From the IMG/VR virus record IMGVR_UViG_3300031954_000001, positions 1 through 64,000 of that record: 64,000 bases of DNA; one strand, given 5' to 3'. The notes under the pieces are model-generated. The model was given only the letters and a program-made list of their open reading frames with translations. It made no database searches and was not told the DNA's origin. A program made the translations under genes and the position numbers. This document shows, one piece after another, positions 2,568 through 40,115 of this stretch. Every line of letters starts with the position of its first letter. Position 1 is the stretch's first letter. Source of the stretch: a virus.

Positions 2568-2649
2568 TCACCCGCTAGCACGGTTGACGGGACGGCCACG
2601 CGCCACGCGCGCGTGGCCGGCCGTGAGCTGCAGCTAGCACGCTCTCACC
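2568..2649 (+). ncRNA. Repeated multi-stem RNA motif, copy 2
   Basis: Same conserved blocks as 2024-2108; begins just after palindrome 2549. Confidence 0.6.
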
Positions 2650-4176: not shown

Positions 4177-4443
4177 ATGACCGCCGCTACGCTCTACCGG
4201 CCGGCCGGCTATGGCCTGACCGCCTACGTGCCAAGCGGACCGCTCCGCGCGGGTGACATCCTGACCAGTCCGCGCACGGGTCAGCGGTTCGTGTTCCGCT
4301 ACGCGGTCTCGCGCACGACCGCCACCGCGTTCGGCAAGATCGCGGTCTCGCCGATCCCGCTGGACTCCATCAGCGGGACGCCGGCCGACTACACCGTAAA
4401 CCTCTACGTCATCGCGTTCGGCGCCCACCTCAAGGTGGGCTGA
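4177..4443 (+). CDS. Hypothetical protein
   Basis: GGAGG RBS, high GC3. Confidence 0.75.
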   Translation: MTAATLYRPAGYGLTAYVPSGPLRAGDILTSPRTGQRFVFRYAVSRTTATAFGKIAVSPIPLDSISGTPADYTVNLYVIAFGAHLKVG

Positions 4444-4522
4444 CGCCGGCGCGCGCAAACCTCCCACCGCTGGGAGCAATCAATCACCCGCCGGCCAAGC
4501 CGGCCCAATGAGGAGAAACATC

Positions 4523-5392: not shown

Positions 5393-5965
5393 ACCACCAA
5401 GACCACCACCGACCTGCGCCTCGCCGTCCGATTCGAGGACAGCCCGTACAACTCGTTCGGCGACCACTACTGCCACGTGTACGTGATGCCCGTCGTCATG
5501 GCGCGCGGCAAGTACGGCGACCAGCGGTACGAGGCGCACAACGTGGACAGCTACGACATCGACGTGCCGGCCAGCGTGAGCGCGCTCAAGGGCCTGCGCG
5601 TCAAGGCGCAGATGGACGACAGGTCCGGCTACTTCTACGGCTACCGCGTGCATTTCGACATCGACCAGCTCACGCTGGACGAGGGCGAGCGCGCGCTACC
5701 GATCCTGCGCCGGCTGGACAAGCGGATGACCGCGCTGTCCGACCAGTTCGGCTACCCGCGCGACATCGTCCAGTTCCTGGCGCACCTCGCGAACGCGATG
5801 GGCCTGGCCGGCAAGCCATTCGTCACCCGCGTGACCGATGAGGCGGACTACGAAGGCCACGGGCACCGGTCCCGCGACGTGGACAGCCTGCGCTACTGGC
5901 TGGACGACCAGGCCAAGGCATGGCGCGAGCGGCACGGGATCACCGTGACCGAAGGCGCCGCGTAG
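5390..5965 (+). CDS. Hypothetical protein
   Basis: CAGGAGAC RBS; strong codon bias. Confidence 0.85.
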   Translation: MTTKTTTDLRLAVRFEDSPYNSFGDHYCHVYVMPVVMARGKYGDQRYEAHNVDSYDIDVPASVSALKGLRVKAQMDDRSGYFYGYRVHFDIDQLTLDEGERALPILRRLDKRMTALSDQFGYPRDIVQFLAHLANAMGLAGKPFVTRVTDEADYEGHGHRSRDVDSLRYWLDDQAKAWRERHGITVTEGAA

Positions 5966-5987: not shown

Positions 5988-6070
5988 TCACCCGCTAGCC
6001 CGGTTGACGGGATGGCCACGGTGCCCGCGCACCGTGGCCGGCCGTGAGCACGCGCTAGCTTGCTCTGACC
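5988..6070 (+). ncRNA. Repeated multi-stem RNA motif, copy 3
   Basis: Central stem ggccacggtgc/gcaccgtggcc is a compensatory variant of ggccacgcgc/gcgcgtggcc. Confidence 0.6.
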
Positions 6071-6089: not shown

Positions 6090-6332
6090 ATGCCCAGTTT
6101 CATGTTCCCCGCGACGGCCGCGCTGATGCTGCGGTCGCACACGTGGGCCAGCCCCATCGCGCTGGACAACGCGCTGCGCAACTACGCGCGCGACGGCCAG
6201 GAATGGTGGATCTTGTCCCGCCGGCCCGATCACCGTCACTGGCACATGGTGCCGGCGCGCGGCGGGTGGCTGGTCAGCCTGGTCAGCCTGCGCAACGCGC
6301 GCGACCTGGCCACCGTCGAACCGCCGTTCTGA
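6090..6332 (+). CDS. Hypothetical protein
   Basis: GAGGAG RBS. Confidence 0.7.
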   Translation: MPSFMFPATAALMLRSHTWASPIALDNALRNYARDGQEWWILSRRPDHRHWHMVPARGGWLVSLVSLRNARDLATVEPPF

Positions 6333-6742: not shown

Positions 6743-8401
6743 ATGATCACGTATGAGGACGCGCGCGACGCGGCAGAGTTCCACGTCGCGCGGGACAGCC
6801 GGCCGTGCCAGGTGTGGCACCGCGCCGGCGAGATCCACCCGATGCCGAACGGCGGGTGGCTGGTGTTCATCGAGACCGAGGACACCGACGACCCGGCCGA
6901 TCGCGGCAGCGACTGGCATCACATCACGCCGGTCAACGCGGCGGGCTTCCACACGCTGGCCGACTGCCCGCTCGCGAACCTCCCATCGGTGGGAGCATCG
7001 CAGGTCGGGCCGGACCTGGCTGACGCCGCCGGCTACGGCGAGGACGGCTACAACGCGTTCGGCTATGACGCGCAGGGCTTCAACCGCGACGGCTACGACG
7101 CATCCGGCTACGACGCGGACGGCTACGACGCGGACGGCTACGACGCGGACGGCGACGACCGCTACGGCCGCAACCGTGACAAGCCGGACGCGAGCAGCCT
7201 GGACCTGGCCGATGAGTGGAGCGCGTTCAGCGGCTACAACCACGACGCGTTCCTGGATCACCTGCGGGAGAAGGTCGCCGACCCGGACGAGATTGACGAC
7301 ATCGAGTTCTGCGGTAACTGCGAGGAGCCGGCGTGGAGCGGCGACCTGACCCGCACCGGCCGGCGGACCGACATCTGCCAGTCGTGCTGGGACGACTGGT
7401 ACACCTGCGAGCACTGCGACGAGCGGTTCCCGAACGAGGACATGAACAGCACGCTGGACGAGTCATTCATCTGCGACCGCTGCCGCGACCGCTACTACTC
7501 GTGGTGCTCGGAGTGCGAGGGCTACTACCCGGACGAGTACGCCGACGACCACTACCACGACAGCTACGCCGAGGACTGCGACTGCGAGTCGCCGCAGCCG
7601 GAGTTCGCGATCCGCAACGACGGCAGCGAACCGCTGCGCAACGACGTGCGGGTAGAGGTCGTACTGGCCGAAGGCGTGATCTCGGCTGAGGGCCTGGCGG
7701 CGATCCGCGACTACCTGCGCGAGCAGGGGATGTGGGACCTGTCCGACGACCTGCACGCGCTAGGCGAGCAGTGGCAGACCCGGGAAGGGAACTACTCCAA
7801 GCGGCTGAGCCGGCTCGCCTACCGGTCCTACCAGGCCAAACTCACGCCGGAGATCCTGTCCCGCGTCGGCAACATCGCACGGGACCACAGCACGAATGTC
7901 AGCGTCGCGATCGAGATCACCCGTGACCTGAACCAGTCCCCCGATTACTTCTACCACGAGGGTTCGTGCTGGTGGGCCGGCGGTGACGCCGACTACCACG
8001 AGAGCCGCTGCGCGTTCAAGACCAACGGCGGTTTCGCGCTGCGGTCATTCAACGGCTACGGCGGCGTGTCCGGGCGAGCGTGGGTGATGCCGCTGCGGAT
8101 GAAGGACGGCAAGCTGCGTCCGACGTTCGAGACCCTGAACGCCGACGCGTTCGCGGTGTTCAACGGGTACGGCAACCTGAGCGGCTACGACCCGGCCCGG
8201 ATCCTCGCCCACATGGCCGGGTGGACCTACCGCAAGTTCAGCAACTTCTCCTGCGACCCGATGTATATCAACTCCGGCACGTATCTCGTCGCGCCCGAGC
8301 CGATCGCGGAGCAGTACGACACGGACGGCGAACTGTACCTGGAAGTCAGCCAGCACTCCAGCCTGTACGAGCGGGAGCGGGAGGAGCACAGCTATGCGTA
8401 A
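6743..8401 (+). CDS. Multi-Zn-ribbon protein with GYDxD repeats and C-terminal SCW..RAWV domain
   Basis: CAGGAGAC RBS; GYDAD repeats; five CxxC pairs; HEGSCWW...GRAWV...FNGYG. Confidence 0.8.
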   Translation: MITYEDARDAAEFHVARDSRPCQVWHRAGEIHPMPNGGWLVFIETEDTDDPADRGSDWHHITPVNAAGFHTLADCPLANLPSVGASQVGPDLADAAGYGEDGYNAFGYDAQGFNRDGYDASGYDADGYDADGYDADGDDRYGRNRDKPDASSLDLADEWSAFSGYNHDAFLDHLREKVADPDEIDDIEFCGNCEEPAWSGDLTRTGRRTDICQSCWDDWYTCEHCDERFPNEDMNSTLDESFICDRCRDRYYSWCSECEGYYPDEYADDHYHDSYAEDCDCESPQPEFAIRNDGSEPLRNDVRVEVVLAEGVISAEGLAAIRDYLREQGMWDLSDDLHALGEQWQTREGNYSKRLSRLAYRSYQAKLTPEILSRVGNIARDHSTNVSVAIEITRDLNQSPDYFYHEGSCWWAGGDADYHESRCAFKTNGGFALRSFNGYGGVSGRAWVMPLRMKDGKLRPTFETLNADAFAVFNGYGNLSGYDPARILAHMAGWTYRKFSNFSCDPMYINSGTYLVAPEPIAEQYDTDGELYLEVSQHSSLYEREREEHSYA

Positions 8402-14475: not shown

Positions 14476-14874
14476 ATGACCAAGAACCACGCGACCGGCC
14501 TGGCGGCGTTCCACGGGCCGGGCAAGACAATCACCCGCGAGTGCGAGTGCGGCACGCTGGTCACCGTGACCGGCGTGTCGGGCGGGTCCAACATGTGCGA
14601 CGAGTGCGCGGCCAAGCTGATCGCCGTGCTGTTCGACGGCGCGCCGATGCCGCCCGAATACCTGTTCCCGCTGGATGAGGTCCCGCTGGACGGCGAGGGG
14701 CGGCCGGTGTCGTGCGGGCTGCGCACCGATCTGCCCAAGCGCGACCGGCGCCACCGCCAGGTGTACCTGGGCACGGACATGCGCCACGCCAACGACGGCG
14801 GGATCGAGGAGCTGCACATCTTCGCCTGCGGTGAATGCGGGCGGGATAAGCAGACCCGGACGCCACCGGCCTGA
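14476..14874 (+). CDS. Zn-binding hypothetical protein
   Basis: AGGAGG RBS; CxC and CxxC motifs. Confidence 0.75.
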   Translation: MTKNHATGLAAFHGPGKTITRECECGTLVTVTGVSGGSNMCDECAAKLIAVLFDGAPMPPEYLFPLDEVPLDGEGRPVSCGLRTDLPKRDRRHRQVYLGTDMRHANDGGIEELHIFACGECGRDKQTRTPPA

Positions 14875-14896
14875 ACCTCCCACCGATGGGAGCAAC

Positions 14897-14962
14897 CTAG
14901 CGAAACCCCCGGAAGGGGGTCCGTGCGGAGACGAGCGCCCGCGCGCTGAACGAGCTAGCTCA
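14897..14962 (+). ncRNA. Type II hammerhead ribozyme (core variant CUGAACGA)
   Basis: Stem II ctagc/gctag; GAAA; stem III accccc-GGAA-gggggt; GUC triplet at 14919-14921; 7-bp stem I; loop I gagc can pair with 3' gctc. Confidence 0.8.
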
Positions 14963-14984
14963 CGAACAGTACAGGAGAACGTAC

Positions 14985-15605
14985 ATGACCAACTTCATCA
15001 CCACCGAGGCCGGCTACCAGATCCCGGACGAGGCCGGCATCCCGCAGATCGCCCCCGGCGACCGCGTTCCCGTCACCGTCGTCCCGCCGCGGCGCTGGTA
15101 CAAGCACCCGCTAACCTGGGTCGCAGTTAGCGCCGCCCTGGTCGGCATCGCGGTCACGCTGATGTTTACCATCGGCCGTCCCAGCAGCCAGGCCGCCACC
15201 AGCCAGGCCCCGGCGCAGCCCGCGACCAGCGCCCCGGCGACCAACCAGCCCACCACGCCATCCCCGGCGAGCCAGATCACGTCCTGGTGGGCCAGCACCG
15301 GCCAGGCCGACACGAACACCGTCCAGGCCGACCTAGGGAACGTCTCACGGGATGCGGGCAACCAGAACCTGGCCGCCGTCGAATCGGACGGGGCCACCCT
15401 GTCCGCCGACGCACAGACCGCGCTCGCCGACACGCCGGCTTCCCCGGCCGGGTTTACCACGCCGTACCGGAACGCGATGACCGCGCTCACCCAGGCGGGT
15501 AATGACATGAGCGCAGGCGACATCACTGGCGCCACGTCCGAGATGCGAACGGGCACAGCCGACATAGGCCAGGCAACCGCCTACGTCCAGTCGCTGAACG
15601 GCTAG
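14985..15605 (+). CDS. Membrane-anchored protein
   Basis: Single TM segment, Pro/Ala/Thr linker, helical C-terminal domain. Confidence 0.8.
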   Translation: MTNFITTEAGYQIPDEAGIPQIAPGDRVPVTVVPPRRWYKHPLTWVAVSAALVGIAVTLMFTIGRPSSQAATSQAPAQPATSAPATNQPTTPSPASQITSWWASTGQADTNTVQADLGNVSRDAGNQNLAAVESDGATLSADAQTALADTPASPAGFTTPYRNAMTALTQAGNDMSAGDITGATSEMRTGTADIGQATAYVQSLNG

Positions 15606-34520: not shown

Positions 34521-35821
34521 GGTCTCGTCTCCTCACAGGCTGCGAACTCGCCCAGGCCCAGGCGCTTGCGGGCCAGCGTGCACGCATCCGGGTCGTTCTC
34601 GGCGCCGACAGCCCGGAAGCCTTCCAGCCCGGCGGCCTGCAGCGTGGTCCCGGTACCGGCGAACGGGTCGATGAGCAGTCCGTCCGGGGGCGTGACCAGC
34701 CGGGCCAGCCAGCGCATCACCGCCAGCGGCTTCACCGCGATATGCGGGTTCACCCCGTCCACCGCGGGGCGCTCGGACTTCGGCGCCTTCGCCGCGTACA
34801 GGAACGGGGCATCCTGCGGCCCCCATTCCGTCTGCGGGAAGAACCGGGCATGCTCTCCCGCCAGGGCGACCGGGCAGCCGGGCTCGCACGACCCGTCGCA
34901 CCCGGGGAAATGGGTGAGGATCAGGTCCGGGGGCCAGCGTCCGGCCGAGCCGTCATAGTCCGTACGCTGCGCCCCGGCCTCCCAGGTGCCGTACGTGCCA
35001 TTCGCGCCCATCCGGTCCGAAGCATTCGAATACCTGGTGTGCTGGTTCTTGCCCTGCGATTCGGCCAGGTCCGCCGCGCTGGCGTGCGCGACCAGGCACC
35101 CGGCGATGTTCAGCGCCCCGGTCCCGTGCGCTAGCACGTTCGCGGCGACGGTGCCGTCCAGTGGCTTACGGGCGACGAGCACCGGCTCGATCGCGGGCTT
35201 GAGCGTGGTACCCCAGCCGTTCCAGCGGGCCGCCTCCGGCGTGGCGGGAACAGTGAGACTGCGACCGGCCGGCCGGACGTAGGCATCATCTGCGAACGTC
35301 AGTCCCTGCGTCGAGTGATCGGCTCGCGGCCTGCGGCTGGCGAACCGCCCCTGGCCGACGACCTCGCGCACCGCCCCCGCCGCCTTGTCGATCGCCTTGG
35401 ACACATCCAGCGATTTCGGGAACCCGCTCCCGTAAATCCAGGCGATGCTGTCCCGGATCTCAAACCCGGCCAGCCGGATGGACAGCCCCATCAGGTCCTG
35501 GGTGCGGGGGGCGGCGAACGCGAGCAGCCACGAGCCCGGCTTCAGCACCCGGTACACCTCGTCCCAGGCGCCGGGCGGCGGCACGAAGGCGTCCCACCCC
35601 CGGCCCATGAATCCCTTGCCGTCCGGGACGTGCAGCCGGTCCCCGGCCAGCCACGCGGCCAGCGCCTGCTCGGTCCGCTTGCGCGGATGCTCCGCCAGCC
35701 CGTACGGCGGGTCTGTGCAGCAGGCGTCCGCGCTGGCATCCGGCAGCGACCCGAGCACGGCCAGCATGTCCGTGCCGAACAGGGCGACCCGCCCGTCCTC
35801 GCTTGCCCAGCTACTTGCCAC
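34517..35821 (-). CDS. DNA methyltransferase (N6-adenine/N4-cytosine, beta class)
   Basis: TDPPY, VLKPG, HIAVKP, DPFAGTGTT. Confidence 0.92.
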   Translation of the reverse strand: MASSWASEDGRVALFGTDMLAVLGSLPDASADACCTDPPYGLAEHPRKRTEQALAAWLAGDRLHVPDGKGFMGRGWDAFVPPPGAWDEVYRVLKPGSWLLAFAAPRTQDLMGLSIRLAGFEIRDSIAWIYGSGFPKSLDVSKAIDKAAGAVREVVGQGRFASRRPRADHSTQGLTFADDAYVRPAGRSLTVPATPEAARWNGWGTTLKPAIEPVLVARKPLDGTVAANVLAHGTGALNIAGCLVAHASAADLAESQGKNQHTRYSNASDRMGANGTYGTWEAGAQRTDYDGSAGRWPPDLILTHFPGCDGSCEPGCPVALAGEHARFFPQTEWGPQDAPFLYAAKAPKSERPAVDGVNPHIAVKPLAVMRWLARLVTPPDGLLIDPFAGTGTTLQAAGLEGFRAVGAENDPDACTLARKRLGLGEFAACEETRP

Positions 35822-38800
35822 CGGAAATCTCCCCCCAGGTGCGGCCGGGGCCGGCCTTGTCGCAGATAACCGGGACACCACGGAAGTCACCGGTCATGGC
35901 CGCCTCGATCACGGGCACGGCCTCGTCCGCCTCGGCGTCGGGGAGCTCGAATACGAGCTCGTCGTGCACCTGCATCAGCAGGTACTTGTAGAGTGCCGGG
36001 TCCAGCCGGATCATGCACTCGCCCAGGATGTCCCGAGCCCCGCCCTGGCCCATCAGCGCCGGGGCGACGGTGTAGGCGTACCGCGGGTCGGCTTTCATCC
36101 GGCGGCCGAACCCGTTGTCCAGGATGCCGCCGCCGGCCGCGATGGCGCGGACCTGCTCGCGCCAGTCGCACAGCACCGGGAACTGCTCGGTCATCCCGTT
36201 GTCGAACCCGTAGGCCATGTCCGGGTCGACGCCGTCGCGGATCATCCGCTCCGGCCCCATGCCGTAATTCCAGCCGTGGCCCCGGGCCTTGGCGTCCTGG
36301 CGGCGCGGGTGGTGGCCGTCCTTGTCCCGCGGTGCCTCGCCGAACACCCGGGCGGCGATCTCGTCGTGCGCGTCGCGGCCGGGCTCGAACAGGGCCATGT
36401 AGGCGTGGTCCTGGCAGTGCCCGGCGATGGCCCGCATGTCCACCTGGGCCAGGTCGAATGACCACAGCGAGTACCCGGGCCGGGCGACGAAGATGTCCCG
36501 CTCCACGTGCCGGCCCTCGTGCTTGCCGAACACGGTCAGCCCCGGCTCGGTTACCGACCAGCGGCCGGACGCCTGCCGGAAGCTGATCGACGGGTGCACC
36601 CGCCCGTCCGGGCACATCCATGCCCTGGCGGTCTGGTAGACCGTCCGGGTGGTGGTCACGATATTCATGAACGTGATCATCGTGCGCAGCTCGGCCGGGC
36701 AGTCCTTGCGCGCGGTGATCGCCTCCAGCTCATCGGACCCGATGGCCAGCTTGCCGGTGTCGGTCTTCGGCGGATTGACGACGCCGAACCGGTCCCACTG
36801 CGCGGCCAGCCACGCCTGACCGTCCCCGGTAGTCAGCGGCGAGTCGAAATCGGTGTCTACGAAGTGTTCCTTGCCGCGGCCCCGGCCCTTGATCTCCGAA
36901 CGGCTCAGTGGCAGGTCCCACTGCTCGTGCAGGATCTGCATCGCCGCCCGCTTGCGGTCCTCGCCGGCCTGGTAGCGCTCCTCCAGCAGGACCTCATCGA
37001 CCCCCAGGCCGTTCAGCCGCATGTGCCCGGCGATCCGGGCCAGCTTGTGCTCGCGCGGCAGGTACTCATCGGAGTCATAGCACGCGCTCAGGAACGCGTA
37101 CACGGCCCGGGTGGCGTCCAGGTCGCCGTTCAGGTAGGCGCGGAACTCCTCGTCATCGACGGGAATCTTGTCGGCGTCGCCCCATTTCTTGGCCAGGTCC
37201 TTGAAGCTGTCGGTCTTGCCGGGCACGCCGATCCGCGCGGCCACCGCGTCCAGCCCGTACTTGTCCTCGCTGTGCCCCTTCTCCCGGGACCGCGGCGGCC
37301 AGTACTGCCGGGCGATCAGCTCGGTGTCGCGGGCCTTGGCGCAGAACGCGTCCCAGTCCATGCCCTCGTGCCAGGCCAGCGCCAGCCCGTCGAAGCCGAG
37401 GATGTTGTGGCCGTACACCTGGTCCGCCGCTCCCAGCATCGCCAGCAGCTGGCTCACGGGCACGATCAGGTCGGTCCCGGTCGGGCCGGTGATCCCGCAC
37501 AGCCGGACGAACCCGGTGCCGTCCGCCATGTGGTAGCCAGGCTCGCGGCGGAACATCTGGTCCGCCCAGCCGGTCTCCAGGTCGAATCCGAGCGTAAGCC
37601 CGGAAGCGACGACGGGAGGGATGGAGGGACATGCGGGATAGTTTCCGCCCGCGTCTTCTCGTGTGCGCACCCGCGCGTCCGCGCCCGCACGTACCGGACT
37701 GGGTATAGCTGAAACCTCCATTCCCTCCGTCCCCTCCTCACGTACGCGTACAGGCGCGTGCGGACGTGCGTACGCGCGTGCGCGCGAGGGTGATCCCTCC
37801 GTATCCCTCCCGCCCAGGTCAGGTACCGTTTCCGTTTCCGGTCCGGCGGGAGGGATCGGGAGGGATGAAATCTGCGACCCGTCGTCGTCGCGGGTCTGGA
37901 CGAACCACTTCTGGACCTTGCGGTGCCCGATACCCATCTTGATGAGCCGGAACTGCCCGAACCAGCGGGACGCGACCCGGCTGTAGGCCGCGCCCATGCT
38001 CCGGGCGAAACCGCGCTCGGCCGGGTCGTCCAGGCCGGGCGGGCTGTCCCAGGTCCCGCCCGATTCGGCGGCTCGCTGCGCGACATCCAGCACGGTGAAC
38101 TCCCCGCTCCGGAAATGACCGGACAGCCAGGCCAGGTGCTCGGACCAATAGCCGCCGGAGCTGTCGGACTCGCGCCGCCGCTCGGTCAGCCCGGCCAGGA
38201 ACCCGGGTACGCCGGCGTGGTGCAGGATCCCGGACATCATCCGGTCCCACCCCTCGAAACTGCCGAGCGAAGCGCCCCGCTTATGCTCCGGGCACCCGGC
38301 CGCCCACCAGGACCGGAGCACGATCAGCGCGGCGGTGACCAGCTCGGGCCGGTTGTCCAGCGTCCAGGTGCGCAGCTCGGAGTGAGTGAACGACTCAGCG
38401 AGCCGGTCCTCGGGTTCCGGCACGTCCGGGCGCAGGTCGATGAAGTACGACCGCCGGGACATGTCCGCCGGGACGTCGATGTTGTTGCCCAGCGCGATCC
38501 AGGTGACCCGGTTCGGGAAGCTGGCCAGCTTGGATACGCCGAGGATCCGGTCGGTGTAGGTGAGCGAGGTGATCGCCCGGGTCAGCGCGGACCCCGACAG
38601 CTTGACCACTTCATCGAAGACCAGGAACGGCGCGCCGGCCCGGAACGCCGAGGTGATCTGCTTGCGGTTCTCCTCATCGCCTGCCTTGTCCGAGGCCCAG
38701 GGCAGTGGCGGGATCGCCTCCCCGGTGACCATCAGCGAGATGCAGTCGGCCAGCAGGTTCTTGCCGACACCGGGCTGCAGGCCCGACACCACGGCGAGCG

Positions 38801-40115
38801 GAACCAGCGGGACCAGGCCGCGGATGAACGAGGTGAGCACCAGCGCCAGCGCGTTGGCCCGGCTGGACTGCTCGGGAAACGGCATGTCTCCCAGCCAGTT
38901 ACCGAGCAGGAACTGCACGGCCCAGGCGACCTGCTCGGGCGTCGGCGCATCCGGGATGTCCAGCCGGTCCATGCCGGAGTTGCCGATGGCCAGGAAGGTG
39001 CGGCTGGACTCGTCGTAGCCGTTCTTGAAGCACACCGACCCGTCCGAGCGGATGAACGGGGTGCGGCTGATCCGGTCCAGCGGCACGAAGTCATCGCCCG
39101 AGGACAGCACCGCGCCCATCGTCTGCACTTCCGGCCAGGCCGGCTCGAACGTGCCCGGGCTGTTCGCGCCCGGCGGCTTGTACTTGCAGGTGAACGCGGC
39201 CTCAGCGATCCAGCGGGCGAGTGAGTCCCGGTCCAGCGGCTCGGTGGATACGCTGAACGTTCTCGGGTCAGGGGCCGTGTAACGCAGCCTGGTCATCGCC
39301 CCGCCGAAATTGAACAGGTCGCGGCCATCCCACAGCTCCCGCATCCGGGCCAGGATCGAGTGGACGACGACGACCCGGTCCTCGTTGACCACGATCACCG
39401 GCCGCCCGTTCGTCTCCGGCTCCTGGTCGCCCAGCTTCCGGTGCGACGGCCGGCGCTCGGCCGGCTTCGGCTGCGCCCTGGCGAGCAGCTTAGCCATCTT
39501 GTCGGTCCGCCGGCCCTCATCGAACCGGGCCAGGTAATCGTCAATGCCGTCCGTGCCCCACGCGAGCGACGGGACGAATCCGGGAACCGCGTCCTCGGAT
39601 TCCAGCTCGGCGGCCATGCCTTCGGCGGACTCGTAGACGTTCAGGTTGTCGCCGGCGTCGGCGTCGATCAAGATGATCACCGGGTGCCCGGCGAACCGGT
39701 GGAACGCCATCGCGGACAGGTCACGCCAGCCGTCCACGCCGGCGATCCCGTAGACCGCGTACTCGGACGGCGCGTAGCTGGCCACGGCGAGGGACTGCTT
39801 AGTGCCCTCGGCGATGATCACCGGCCCGGCCTTGCTGTCAGCCGGGAGCGGCCGGAGCGCCCACATGTGCAGCGGGTGCCCGGCTTCCCACAGGTACTTA
39901 GGCGTGCCCTGCGGCAGGCCGCCCTCGGGTTCGGGCCACTGGCGGGTCTGCCTGGTCAGCATGTTGTTGTCGCGCCACGGGAAAACGACCCGGTCGCCGT
40001 CCGAGCTGACATCCGCTGCCGCCAGGACCTTGTCGGTGATGGCGTGGGCGCGCAGGTATGCCAGGTGAGTCTCCGAGAGACGGGATTGCACCAGCTGCGT
40101 GTCGTCGTTGCTCAT
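35811..40115 (-). CDS. Primase (TOPRIM)-helicase (P-loop)-family A DNA polymerase fusion
   Basis: IIAEGTKQ and IDAD (TOPRIM); GLQPGVGKNLL and LVFDEV (Walker A/B); FDLET and GHNILGFD (3'-5' exo); SGRWS, DLAQVDMR, KARGHGWNYG, QVHDELVF (PolA). Confidence 0.92.
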   Translation of the reverse strand: MSNDDTQLVQSRLSETHLAYLRAHAITDKVLAAADVSSDGDRVVFPWRDNNMLTRQTRQWPEPEGGLPQGTPKYLWEAGHPLHMWALRPLPADSKAGPVIIAEGTKQSLAVASYAPSEYAVYGIAGVDGWRDLSAMAFHRFAGHPVIILIDADAGDNLNVYESAEGMAAELESEDAVPGFVPSLAWGTDGIDDYLARFDEGRRTDKMAKLLARAQPKPAERRPSHRKLGDQEPETNGRPVIVVNEDRVVVVHSILARMRELWDGRDLFNFGGAMTRLRYTAPDPRTFSVSTEPLDRDSLARWIAEAAFTCKYKPPGANSPGTFEPAWPEVQTMGAVLSSGDDFVPLDRISRTPFIRSDGSVCFKNGYDESSRTFLAIGNSGMDRLDIPDAPTPEQVAWAVQFLLGNWLGDMPFPEQSSRANALALVLTSFIRGLVPLVPLAVVSGLQPGVGKNLLADCISLMVTGEAIPPLPWASDKAGDEENRKQITSAFRAGAPFLVFDEVVKLSGSALTRAITSLTYTDRILGVSKLASFPNRVTWIALGNNIDVPADMSRRSYFIDLRPDVPEPEDRLAESFTHSELRTWTLDNRPELVTAALIVLRSWWAAGCPEHKRGASLGSFEGWDRMMSGILHHAGVPGFLAGLTERRRESDSSGGYWSEHLAWLSGHFRSGEFTVLDVAQRAAESGGTWDSPPGLDDPAERGFARSMGAAYSRVASRWFGQFRLIKMGIGHRKVQKWFVQTRDDDGSQISSLPIPPAGPETETVPDLGGRDTEGSPSRARAYARPHAPVRVREEGTEGMEVSAIPSPVRAGADARVRTREDAGGNYPACPSIPPVVASGLTLGFDLETGWADQMFRREPGYHMADGTGFVRLCGITGPTGTDLIVPVSQLLAMLGAADQVYGHNILGFDGLALAWHEGMDWDAFCAKARDTELIARQYWPPRSREKGHSEDKYGLDAVAARIGVPGKTDSFKDLAKKWGDADKIPVDDEEFRAYLNGDLDATRAVYAFLSACYDSDEYLPREHKLARIAGHMRLNGLGVDEVLLEERYQAGEDRKRAAMQILHEQWDLPLSRSEIKGRGRGKEHFVDTDFDSPLTTGDGQAWLAAQWDRFGVVNPPKTDTGKLAIGSDELEAITARKDCPAELRTMITFMNIVTTTRTVYQTARAWMCPDGRVHPSISFRQASGRWSVTEPGLTVFGKHEGRHVERDIFVARPGYSLWSFDLAQVDMRAIAGHCQDHAYMALFEPGRDAHDEIAARVFGEAPRDKDGHHPRRQDAKARGHGWNYGMGPERMIRDGVDPDMAYGFDNGMTEQFPVLCDWREQVRAIAAGGGILDNGFGRRMKADPRYAYTVAPALMGQGGARDILGECMIRLDPALYKYLLMQVHDELVFELPDAEADEAVPVIEAAMTGDFRGVPVICDKAGPGRTWGEISGGK
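37614..37866. other. Candidate replication origin in the helicase-polymerase linker
   Basis: GGAGGGA at 37615, 37623, 37849, 37859; TCCCTCC at 37722, 37794, 37804; alternating purine-pyrimidine tract 37740-37786. Confidence 0.55.

Follow-up and report, generated by a model that had tools for sequence, protein, structure and literature searches.

A probable type II hammerhead ribozyme between two phage genes

An element at positions 14897–14958 of the sequence of an uncultivated high-GC phage is probably a true type II hammerhead ribozyme with the rare, naturally occurring A6a core (we place the probability at roughly 0.7), lying between genes of a polycistronic operon and predicted to cut its transcript after C14921. 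The sequence analyzed, referred to as the window, comprises the first 64 kb (64,000 nucleotides) of a linear IMG/VR virus record of 108,794 bases with ~70% G+C and ~52% completeness by CheckV, and the features discussed are collected in Table 1. Three helices of 7, 5, and 6 bp (stems I, II, and III) occur in type II order, with loops capping stems I and III and stem II left open, and both the minimum-free-energy fold and the centroid fold computed with ViennaRNA consist of exactly these three helices. Stem I pairs CGUGCGG (14922–14928) with CCGCGCG (14939–14945), including one G-U pair, and the five pairs of stem II include G10.1(14954)–C11.1(14901), as in the Rfam family Hammerhead_II (RF02276). 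The GAA strand, the A15.1–U16.1 pair, and a non-G nucleotide at position 17 (C14921) also conform to this family; the core strand C3 U4 G5 A6 N7 G8 A9 departs from it, being interrupted and 8 nt long instead of 7.

A preliminary description of this DNA, made from the letters alone, had named each of these elements, and all of them were recovered on reading the sequence, with both folds in agreement. Its assignment of the element to type II hammerheads is supported by the core, the three helices, and the RF02276 alignment, and the cut that it predicted would fall at the position indicated by the GUC triplet and by the same alignment. Its further proposal, that GAGC in loop I (14933–14936) pairs with GCUC in the 3′ tail, fared less well: four base pairs can form, but G14958 is also used by the terminal pair of stem II, and pairing of the same quality is reached by 24% of shuffled loops. 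The loop I/tail pseudoknot is possible, but statistically indistinguishable from chance.

Table 1. Coordinates of the hammerhead, its surroundings, and related elements (window numbering unless a contig is named)
Feature	Position	Strand	Details or basis
Upstream gene	14476–14874	+	132-aa protein with two CxxC pairs; GC3 0.93
Gene-end palindrome CTCCCACCGATGGGAG	14877–14892	+	CTCCCA-CCGA-TGGGAG, 6-bp hairpin; pattern search, predicted fold
Stem II, 5′ strand CUAGC	14897–14901	+	last base C11.1 (14901); sequence, fold, descriptor
Core G12 A13 A14	14902–14904	+	aligned to GAA of RF02276
Stem III hairpin, 6 bp, loop GGAA	14905–14920	+	A15.1(14905)–U16.1(14920) and five C-G pairs; sequence, fold
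C17, predicted cut 14921/14922	14921	+	hammerhead consensus (GUC triplet), RF02276 alignment
Stem I hairpin, 7 bp, 10-nt loop AGACGAGCGC	14922–14945	+	sequence, fold
Core strand CUGAACGA	14946–14953	+	C3 U4 G5 A6 [inserted A, 14950] C7 G8 A9; cmscan places the insertion after CUGA
Stem II, 3′ strand GCUAG	14954–14958	+	first base G10.1 (14954); sequence, fold, descriptor
GCUC, possible partner of loop I	14958–14961	+	4 Watson-Crick pairs with GAGC
Shine-Dalgarno AGGAGA of downstream gene	14973–14978	+	part of the recurring GAACAGGAGA module
Downstream gene	14985–15605	+	206-aa protein, ATG at 14985; GC3 0.89
Palindromes in the window	2549, 3935, 4113, 4461, 4818, 4985, 5326, 5970, 6677, 6980, 8452, 10337, 12237, 14877, 16660, 20054, 23396, 27674, 34249, 43408(-), 51676, 58547
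Palindromes elsewhere in the record	88526, 90241
Ordinary cassette	27674		TGGGAG-CAAC-GAACAGGAGA
Ordinary cassette	20054		TGGGAA-CTTC-ACGAACAGGAGA
Ordinary cassette	12237		similar arrangement
A-insert hammerhead, contig L112	4588–4658	-	61.5 bits
A-insert hammerhead, contig L038	7140–7209	+	60.8 bits
A-insert hammerhead, contig L070	3955–4029	-	core CUGAACGA

The element starts 23 nt after the stop codon of the upstream gene, and the end of stem II is followed after 15 nt by the AGGAGA sequence and after 27 nt by the ATG of the downstream gene. Judged by their GC3 values of 0.93 and 0.89, both flanking ORFs are real genes, whereas a 151-codon ORF running across the motif (GC3 0.62) was rejected as a spurious product of high G+C content. 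The hammerhead is therefore intergenic and shares its strand with both neighbors, in the setting given by the preliminary description, i.e. between a gene-end hairpin and the ribosome-binding site (RBS) of a gene for a single-pass membrane protein. The translation of the latter reveals a single hydrophobic helix followed by a Pro/Thr/Ser/Ala-rich linker. Neither this protein nor its upstream neighbor matched Pfam or PHROG; exact copies of the 132-aa protein occur on 91 contigs, and a homolog search with the 206-aa protein returned near-identical copies and none more distant.

The window also encodes a 1434-aa primase-helicase-PolA fusion at 35811–40115 (-). The nearest known phage by this protein is Actinoplanes phage phiAsp2 (Pas55; 37.6% identity over 99%), with Streptomyces phages next, and the host is therefore probably an actinobacterium. 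The full-length fusion is also present in phiAsp2, while in the Streptomyces phages primase and polymerase are separate genes. No hammerhead was found in phiAsp2, a BLASTN search with the locus as query gave no match in 50,697 phage records, and IMG/VR scans seeded with both flanking proteins and the polymerase fusion returned no related phage. A diverged homolog of the hammerhead locus was not found in these searches, a metagenome contig (L128, below) being identical. The element represents a probable hammerhead from a high-GC phage lineage about which very little is known, and in which the flanking proteins are all without a family match.

Family membership and the A-insert variant

The preliminary description had proposed a search with hammerhead models. 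Using cmscan, RF02276 aligned end to end with 14898–14964 at 30.7 bits, with E-values of 2e-4 (local), 0.03 (whole window, all 4227 families), and 1.2e-5 (whole record, this family alone), and no other Rfam family scored better than E 3.7 in the window. The match is nevertheless below the RF02276 gathering cut-off of 37 bits, so that nothing is shown at gathering thresholds. This shortfall results from the extra A, the 5-bp stem II, and the lack of the common GUGGUG/AGCCAA pseudoknot sequences.

The insertion itself has a precedent. The first natural type II hammerheads were described by Perreault et al. (2011; PMC3088659), who found them to be common in bacteria and prophages, often flanking single genes, and in most cases with loop I and the 3′ tail joined in a pseudoknot. 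The same study (Figure 5 and text) reports one natural case of an insertion after A6, designated A6a, with low activity that was attributed to disturbance of the contact between the A6-N7 phosphate and U4; in addition, some natural core variants were inactive, and lengthening of stem II in one tested type II construct lowered activity. The one-nucleotide insertion that the preliminary description had singled out is present (A14950), but it is not new: it is a known, rare core variant, and it recurs in unrelated viral contigs.

To find these, IMG/VR was scanned with the pattern GCGAAAC-N(8-30)-GTC-N(16-44)-CTGAANGAGC, and matches were counted as hammerheads if stem III (5 bp or more) and stem I (4 bp or more) both closed exactly on the core. 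Of the 98 unique matches listed, 11 fold accordingly, compared to 0.15% after shuffling of the variable segments, and looser thresholds yield at least 13 distinct elements. The canonical pattern, which lacks the insertion, had 150 matches, of which 97 fold; scaled by chance matches, the A-insert form would make up very roughly 1–2% of type II hammerheads with this signature. Other inserted bases (CUGA-B-N-GA) produced three weak candidates in 106 matches, and on this basis the recurring variant is specifically CUGA-A-(U/C)-GA. The core of the window element, CUGA-A-C-GA (CUGAACGA), is identical in L112 and L070. Three A-insert members pass the Rfam cut-off (L112 and L038, with the scores in Table 1, and L081 at 46.1 bits), and L112 does so despite carrying the insertion in the same core as the window element. 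Most A-insert elements lie no more than ~25 nt past an ORF end, and the majority are located 14–60 nt 5′ of a Shine-Dalgarno sequence and start codon, as in the window. Their core-anchored stems are built from many pair types; for example, the third pair of stem III is CG in four cases, GC in eight, AU in one, and UA in one.

A covariance model, R1, was constructed from a seed of five A-insert hammerheads on unrelated IMG/VR contigs, with the window element left out. R1 scores the window element at 41.9 bits (E 1.9e-7), 11 bits above the generic Rfam model, and finds no other match in the 64 kb. In an R1-guided alignment of 19 hits, 98.9% of cells are paired and both partners vary in 13 of 17 pairs; covariation reaches a score of 0.70, compared to 0.15 for shuffled alignments and 0.06–0.13 for slid partners, values to be read in light of the choice of members for forming stems and the fitting of the alignment to the R1 model. 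By the counts of folding matches and these alignments, the CUGA-A-Y-GA form is a real, recurring hammerhead class, and the window element matches it, combining the CUGA-A-Y-GA core with an otherwise consensus type II architecture in the R1 model. The analysis thus establishes the sequence, fold, and statistical significance of the element, its membership in the type II family and the A-insert subclass, and a genomic placement shared with other members.

Recurrence in unrelated contigs, covarying stems, and constant placement suggest that selection tolerates or even favors the variant. Since most copies fall below the standard Rfam thresholds, which miss them, the same data suggest that hammerhead surveys undercount such forms. 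We consider this by-product of wider use than the window element itself: an insertion reported in 2011 recurs across many unrelated viral contigs.

Several of the scanned contigs carry further ribozymes. L038 possesses three type II hammerheads within 3 kb of one strand (4424–4492, 5858–5926, and 7140–7209, all +), spaced like brackets around single genes; two are canonical and one is of the A-insert form, and all three score above the Rfam cut-off. Self-cleaving ribozymes are known to cluster, and a twister-P5 ribozyme on the unrelated viral contig L084 (6931–6988, +; 55.8 bits), ~640 nt downstream of an A-insert hammerhead (6223–6289, +), fits this tendency. Two other contigs, L195 and L214 (IMG/VR 3300046664_000025 and 3300046520_000064), present unusually dense arrays, with 7 and 5 matches to the canonical pattern, respectively, in 4–6 kb.

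Predicted cleavage and its consequences

If the element is catalytically competent, the transcript shared with the flanking genes would fold into the three helices around the core and, by internal transesterification, cleave itself after C14921. The mRNA of the upstream gene would then end in the gene-end hairpin and the stem III hairpin, with a 2′,3′-cyclic phosphate, while the membrane-protein mRNA would carry a 5′-OH on C14922 and start with the stem I hairpin, 51 nt 5′ of its RBS. Once cut, the halves would be joined by the 5-bp stem II alone, and should therefore separate, so that each mRNA could meet its own fate, with possible consequences for mRNA stability or expression. The RBS is predicted to be open in the 3′ product. 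Unmasking of the RBS by refolding was considered and rejected, as predicted folds leave this region equally open before and after the cut. The rate is a separate matter: the extra A probably makes cleavage slower, so that processing may be partial, and slow or incomplete cutting would also be in keeping with the 5-bp stem II, the weak pseudoknot, and the low activity reported for A6a.

The same features raise the alternative that the element is a hammerhead by descent that is now catalytically dead or nearly so, i.e. a decaying copy in which the core insertion and the over-long stem II would abolish useful cleavage and whose leftover role would be structural, such as stabilization by hairpins in the 5′ UTR. 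Low in vitro activity of A6a and the inactivity of some natural core variants (PMC3088659) are compatible with this view, as are the score below the Rfam cut-off, the weak pseudoknot, the occurrence of a single copy in the genome, and the failure of the searches to find relatives that would show purifying selection. However, all other invariant positions and the three helices are intact, and unrelated phages carry the A-insert form with covarying stems and conserved placement, which would not be expected of a decaying relic. Overall, we regard loss of activity as unlikely, and favor a genuine ribozyme of the A6a form.

A more far-reaching version of this preferred reading is that CUGA-A-Y-GA hammerheads, instead of being sporadic defects, form a selected subclass, in which the extra A tunes slow, partial, or conditional cleavage and thereby the ratio of joined to separated mRNAs, the window element being a ~65-nt module of this kind within a standardized cassette. 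We advance this only tentatively, and would sooner expect it to fail than to hold. The hammerhead opens no new class of RNA or mechanism, and is a real but fairly ordinary find; it does single out 14921/14922 as a precise position at which to test for mRNA processing.

Sequencing error and chance resemblance

If the extra A had arisen by an assembly or sequencing error, the true element would be a canonical CUGACGA hammerhead, and a run of two A residues (14949–50) can in principle be miscalled. A scan of metagenome contigs identified one near-identical sequence, L128 (Ga0310916_10037871), in addition to two irrelevant weak matches. L128 was assembled separately and is identical to the window over 14877–14984, extra A included. 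Because of this identity, and because at least 11 further viral contigs contain the same A insertion, an error is an unlikely source of the extra A, and we give this explanation very little weight. L128 does differ from the window within the upstream ORF, where, on comparison with 14541–14644, 104 nt are missing and one substitution occurs at 14644, with identity otherwise over 3 kb. As its length is not divisible by three, the deletion truncates or frameshifts the CxxC protein in that variant.

The significance of the motif was evaluated with a descriptor that requires GAAA, a closed stem III with U as its last base, any nucleotide except G, stem I (also closed), CUGA-N(1-2)-GA, and stem II. 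Across both strands of the 108,794-base record, and with zero or one inserted base allowed, this site is the only match. When the genome was shuffled 300 times with dinucleotides preserved, the relaxed descriptor occurred 0.023 times and the moderate descriptor 0.003 times per genome, and stems as long as those observed appeared in none of the 300. The motif is thus more than chance. A chance resemblance arising in GC-rich intergenic sequence, or two terminator-like hairpins unrelated to hammerheads, is accordingly a highly improbable explanation, for although hairpins are frequent in high-GC DNA and the fold-energy z-scores are unremarkable (-1.1 and -1.75), the shuffled genomes, two independent covariance models (E 1e-5 to 2e-7), and the absence of a U-run after either hairpin all speak against it.

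Genomic cassette

The palindrome that ends 4 nt 5′ of the hammerhead belongs to a repeated family, YTCCCA-N4-TGGGAR, with 24 copies in the record and directional flanks AAC...CAAC. Many copies start exactly 3 nt past a stop codon and have a GAACAGGAGA-type RBS on their 3′ side. An IMG/VR pattern scan for the palindrome found no other contig with more than one copy, the matches being single and at chance level. Classical intrinsic termination was ruled out for these palindromes, as no U-run follows them. The preliminary description had linked the palindromes to RNA processing through the hammerhead; the 4-nt adjacency stands, but it provides no such tie, given that the hammerhead follows only one of 24 palindromes, and the association is positional only.

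Judged against the three ordinary cassettes of Table 1, the hammerhead is a discrete insert of ~65 nt between CAAC and ACGAACAG..AGGAGA. It looks like a module of that length inserted into the standard arrangement of palindrome, CAAC, spacer, and RBS.

A second structured motif, of ~85 nt, is found in three copies in the window (2568–2649, 5988–6070, and 2024–2108), two of them directly 3′ of a palindrome. Its sequence is UCACCCGCUAGC..GGUUGACGGGAYGGCCACG..CGUGGCCGGCCGUGAGC..GCUAGC, and two of its loops contain the self-complementary GCUAGC, which is also present in hammerhead stem II (CUAGC/GCUAG). No Rfam family matched this motif at E <= 5.

Comparison with known hammerheads

With the type II hammerheads of RF02276, the window element shares an open stem II, hairpin-closed stems I and III, the GAAA and CUGA..GA strands, the G10.1-C11.1 and A15.1-U16.1 pairs, and the GUC cleavage triplet. 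The setting is also similar, i.e. intergenic in a phage operon just 5′ of an RBS, with a possible pairing of loop I and 3′ tail. The window element differs in one extra A between A6 and N7, in a stem II of 5 bp instead of the usual 2–4, and in a loop and tail of other sequence than the common GUGGUG/AGCCAA pseudoknot.

The A6a variant of Perreault et al. (2011) is closer, since cmscan places the insertion of the window element likewise directly after A6 in the CUGANGA strand. Whereas a single insertion was reported in that study, at least 11 further viral contigs here carry the CUGA-A-(U/C)-GA core. These IMG/VR elements, exemplified by L112, L038, and L070, reside in phages with no detectable relationship to the present one, and mostly possess a stem II of 2–4 bp and clearer pseudoknots, compared to the 5-bp stem II and weaker pseudoknot of the window. 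They nevertheless resemble the window element in topology, in their placement after the end of an ORF and before a Shine-Dalgarno sequence, and in their occurrence on high-GC phage contigs.
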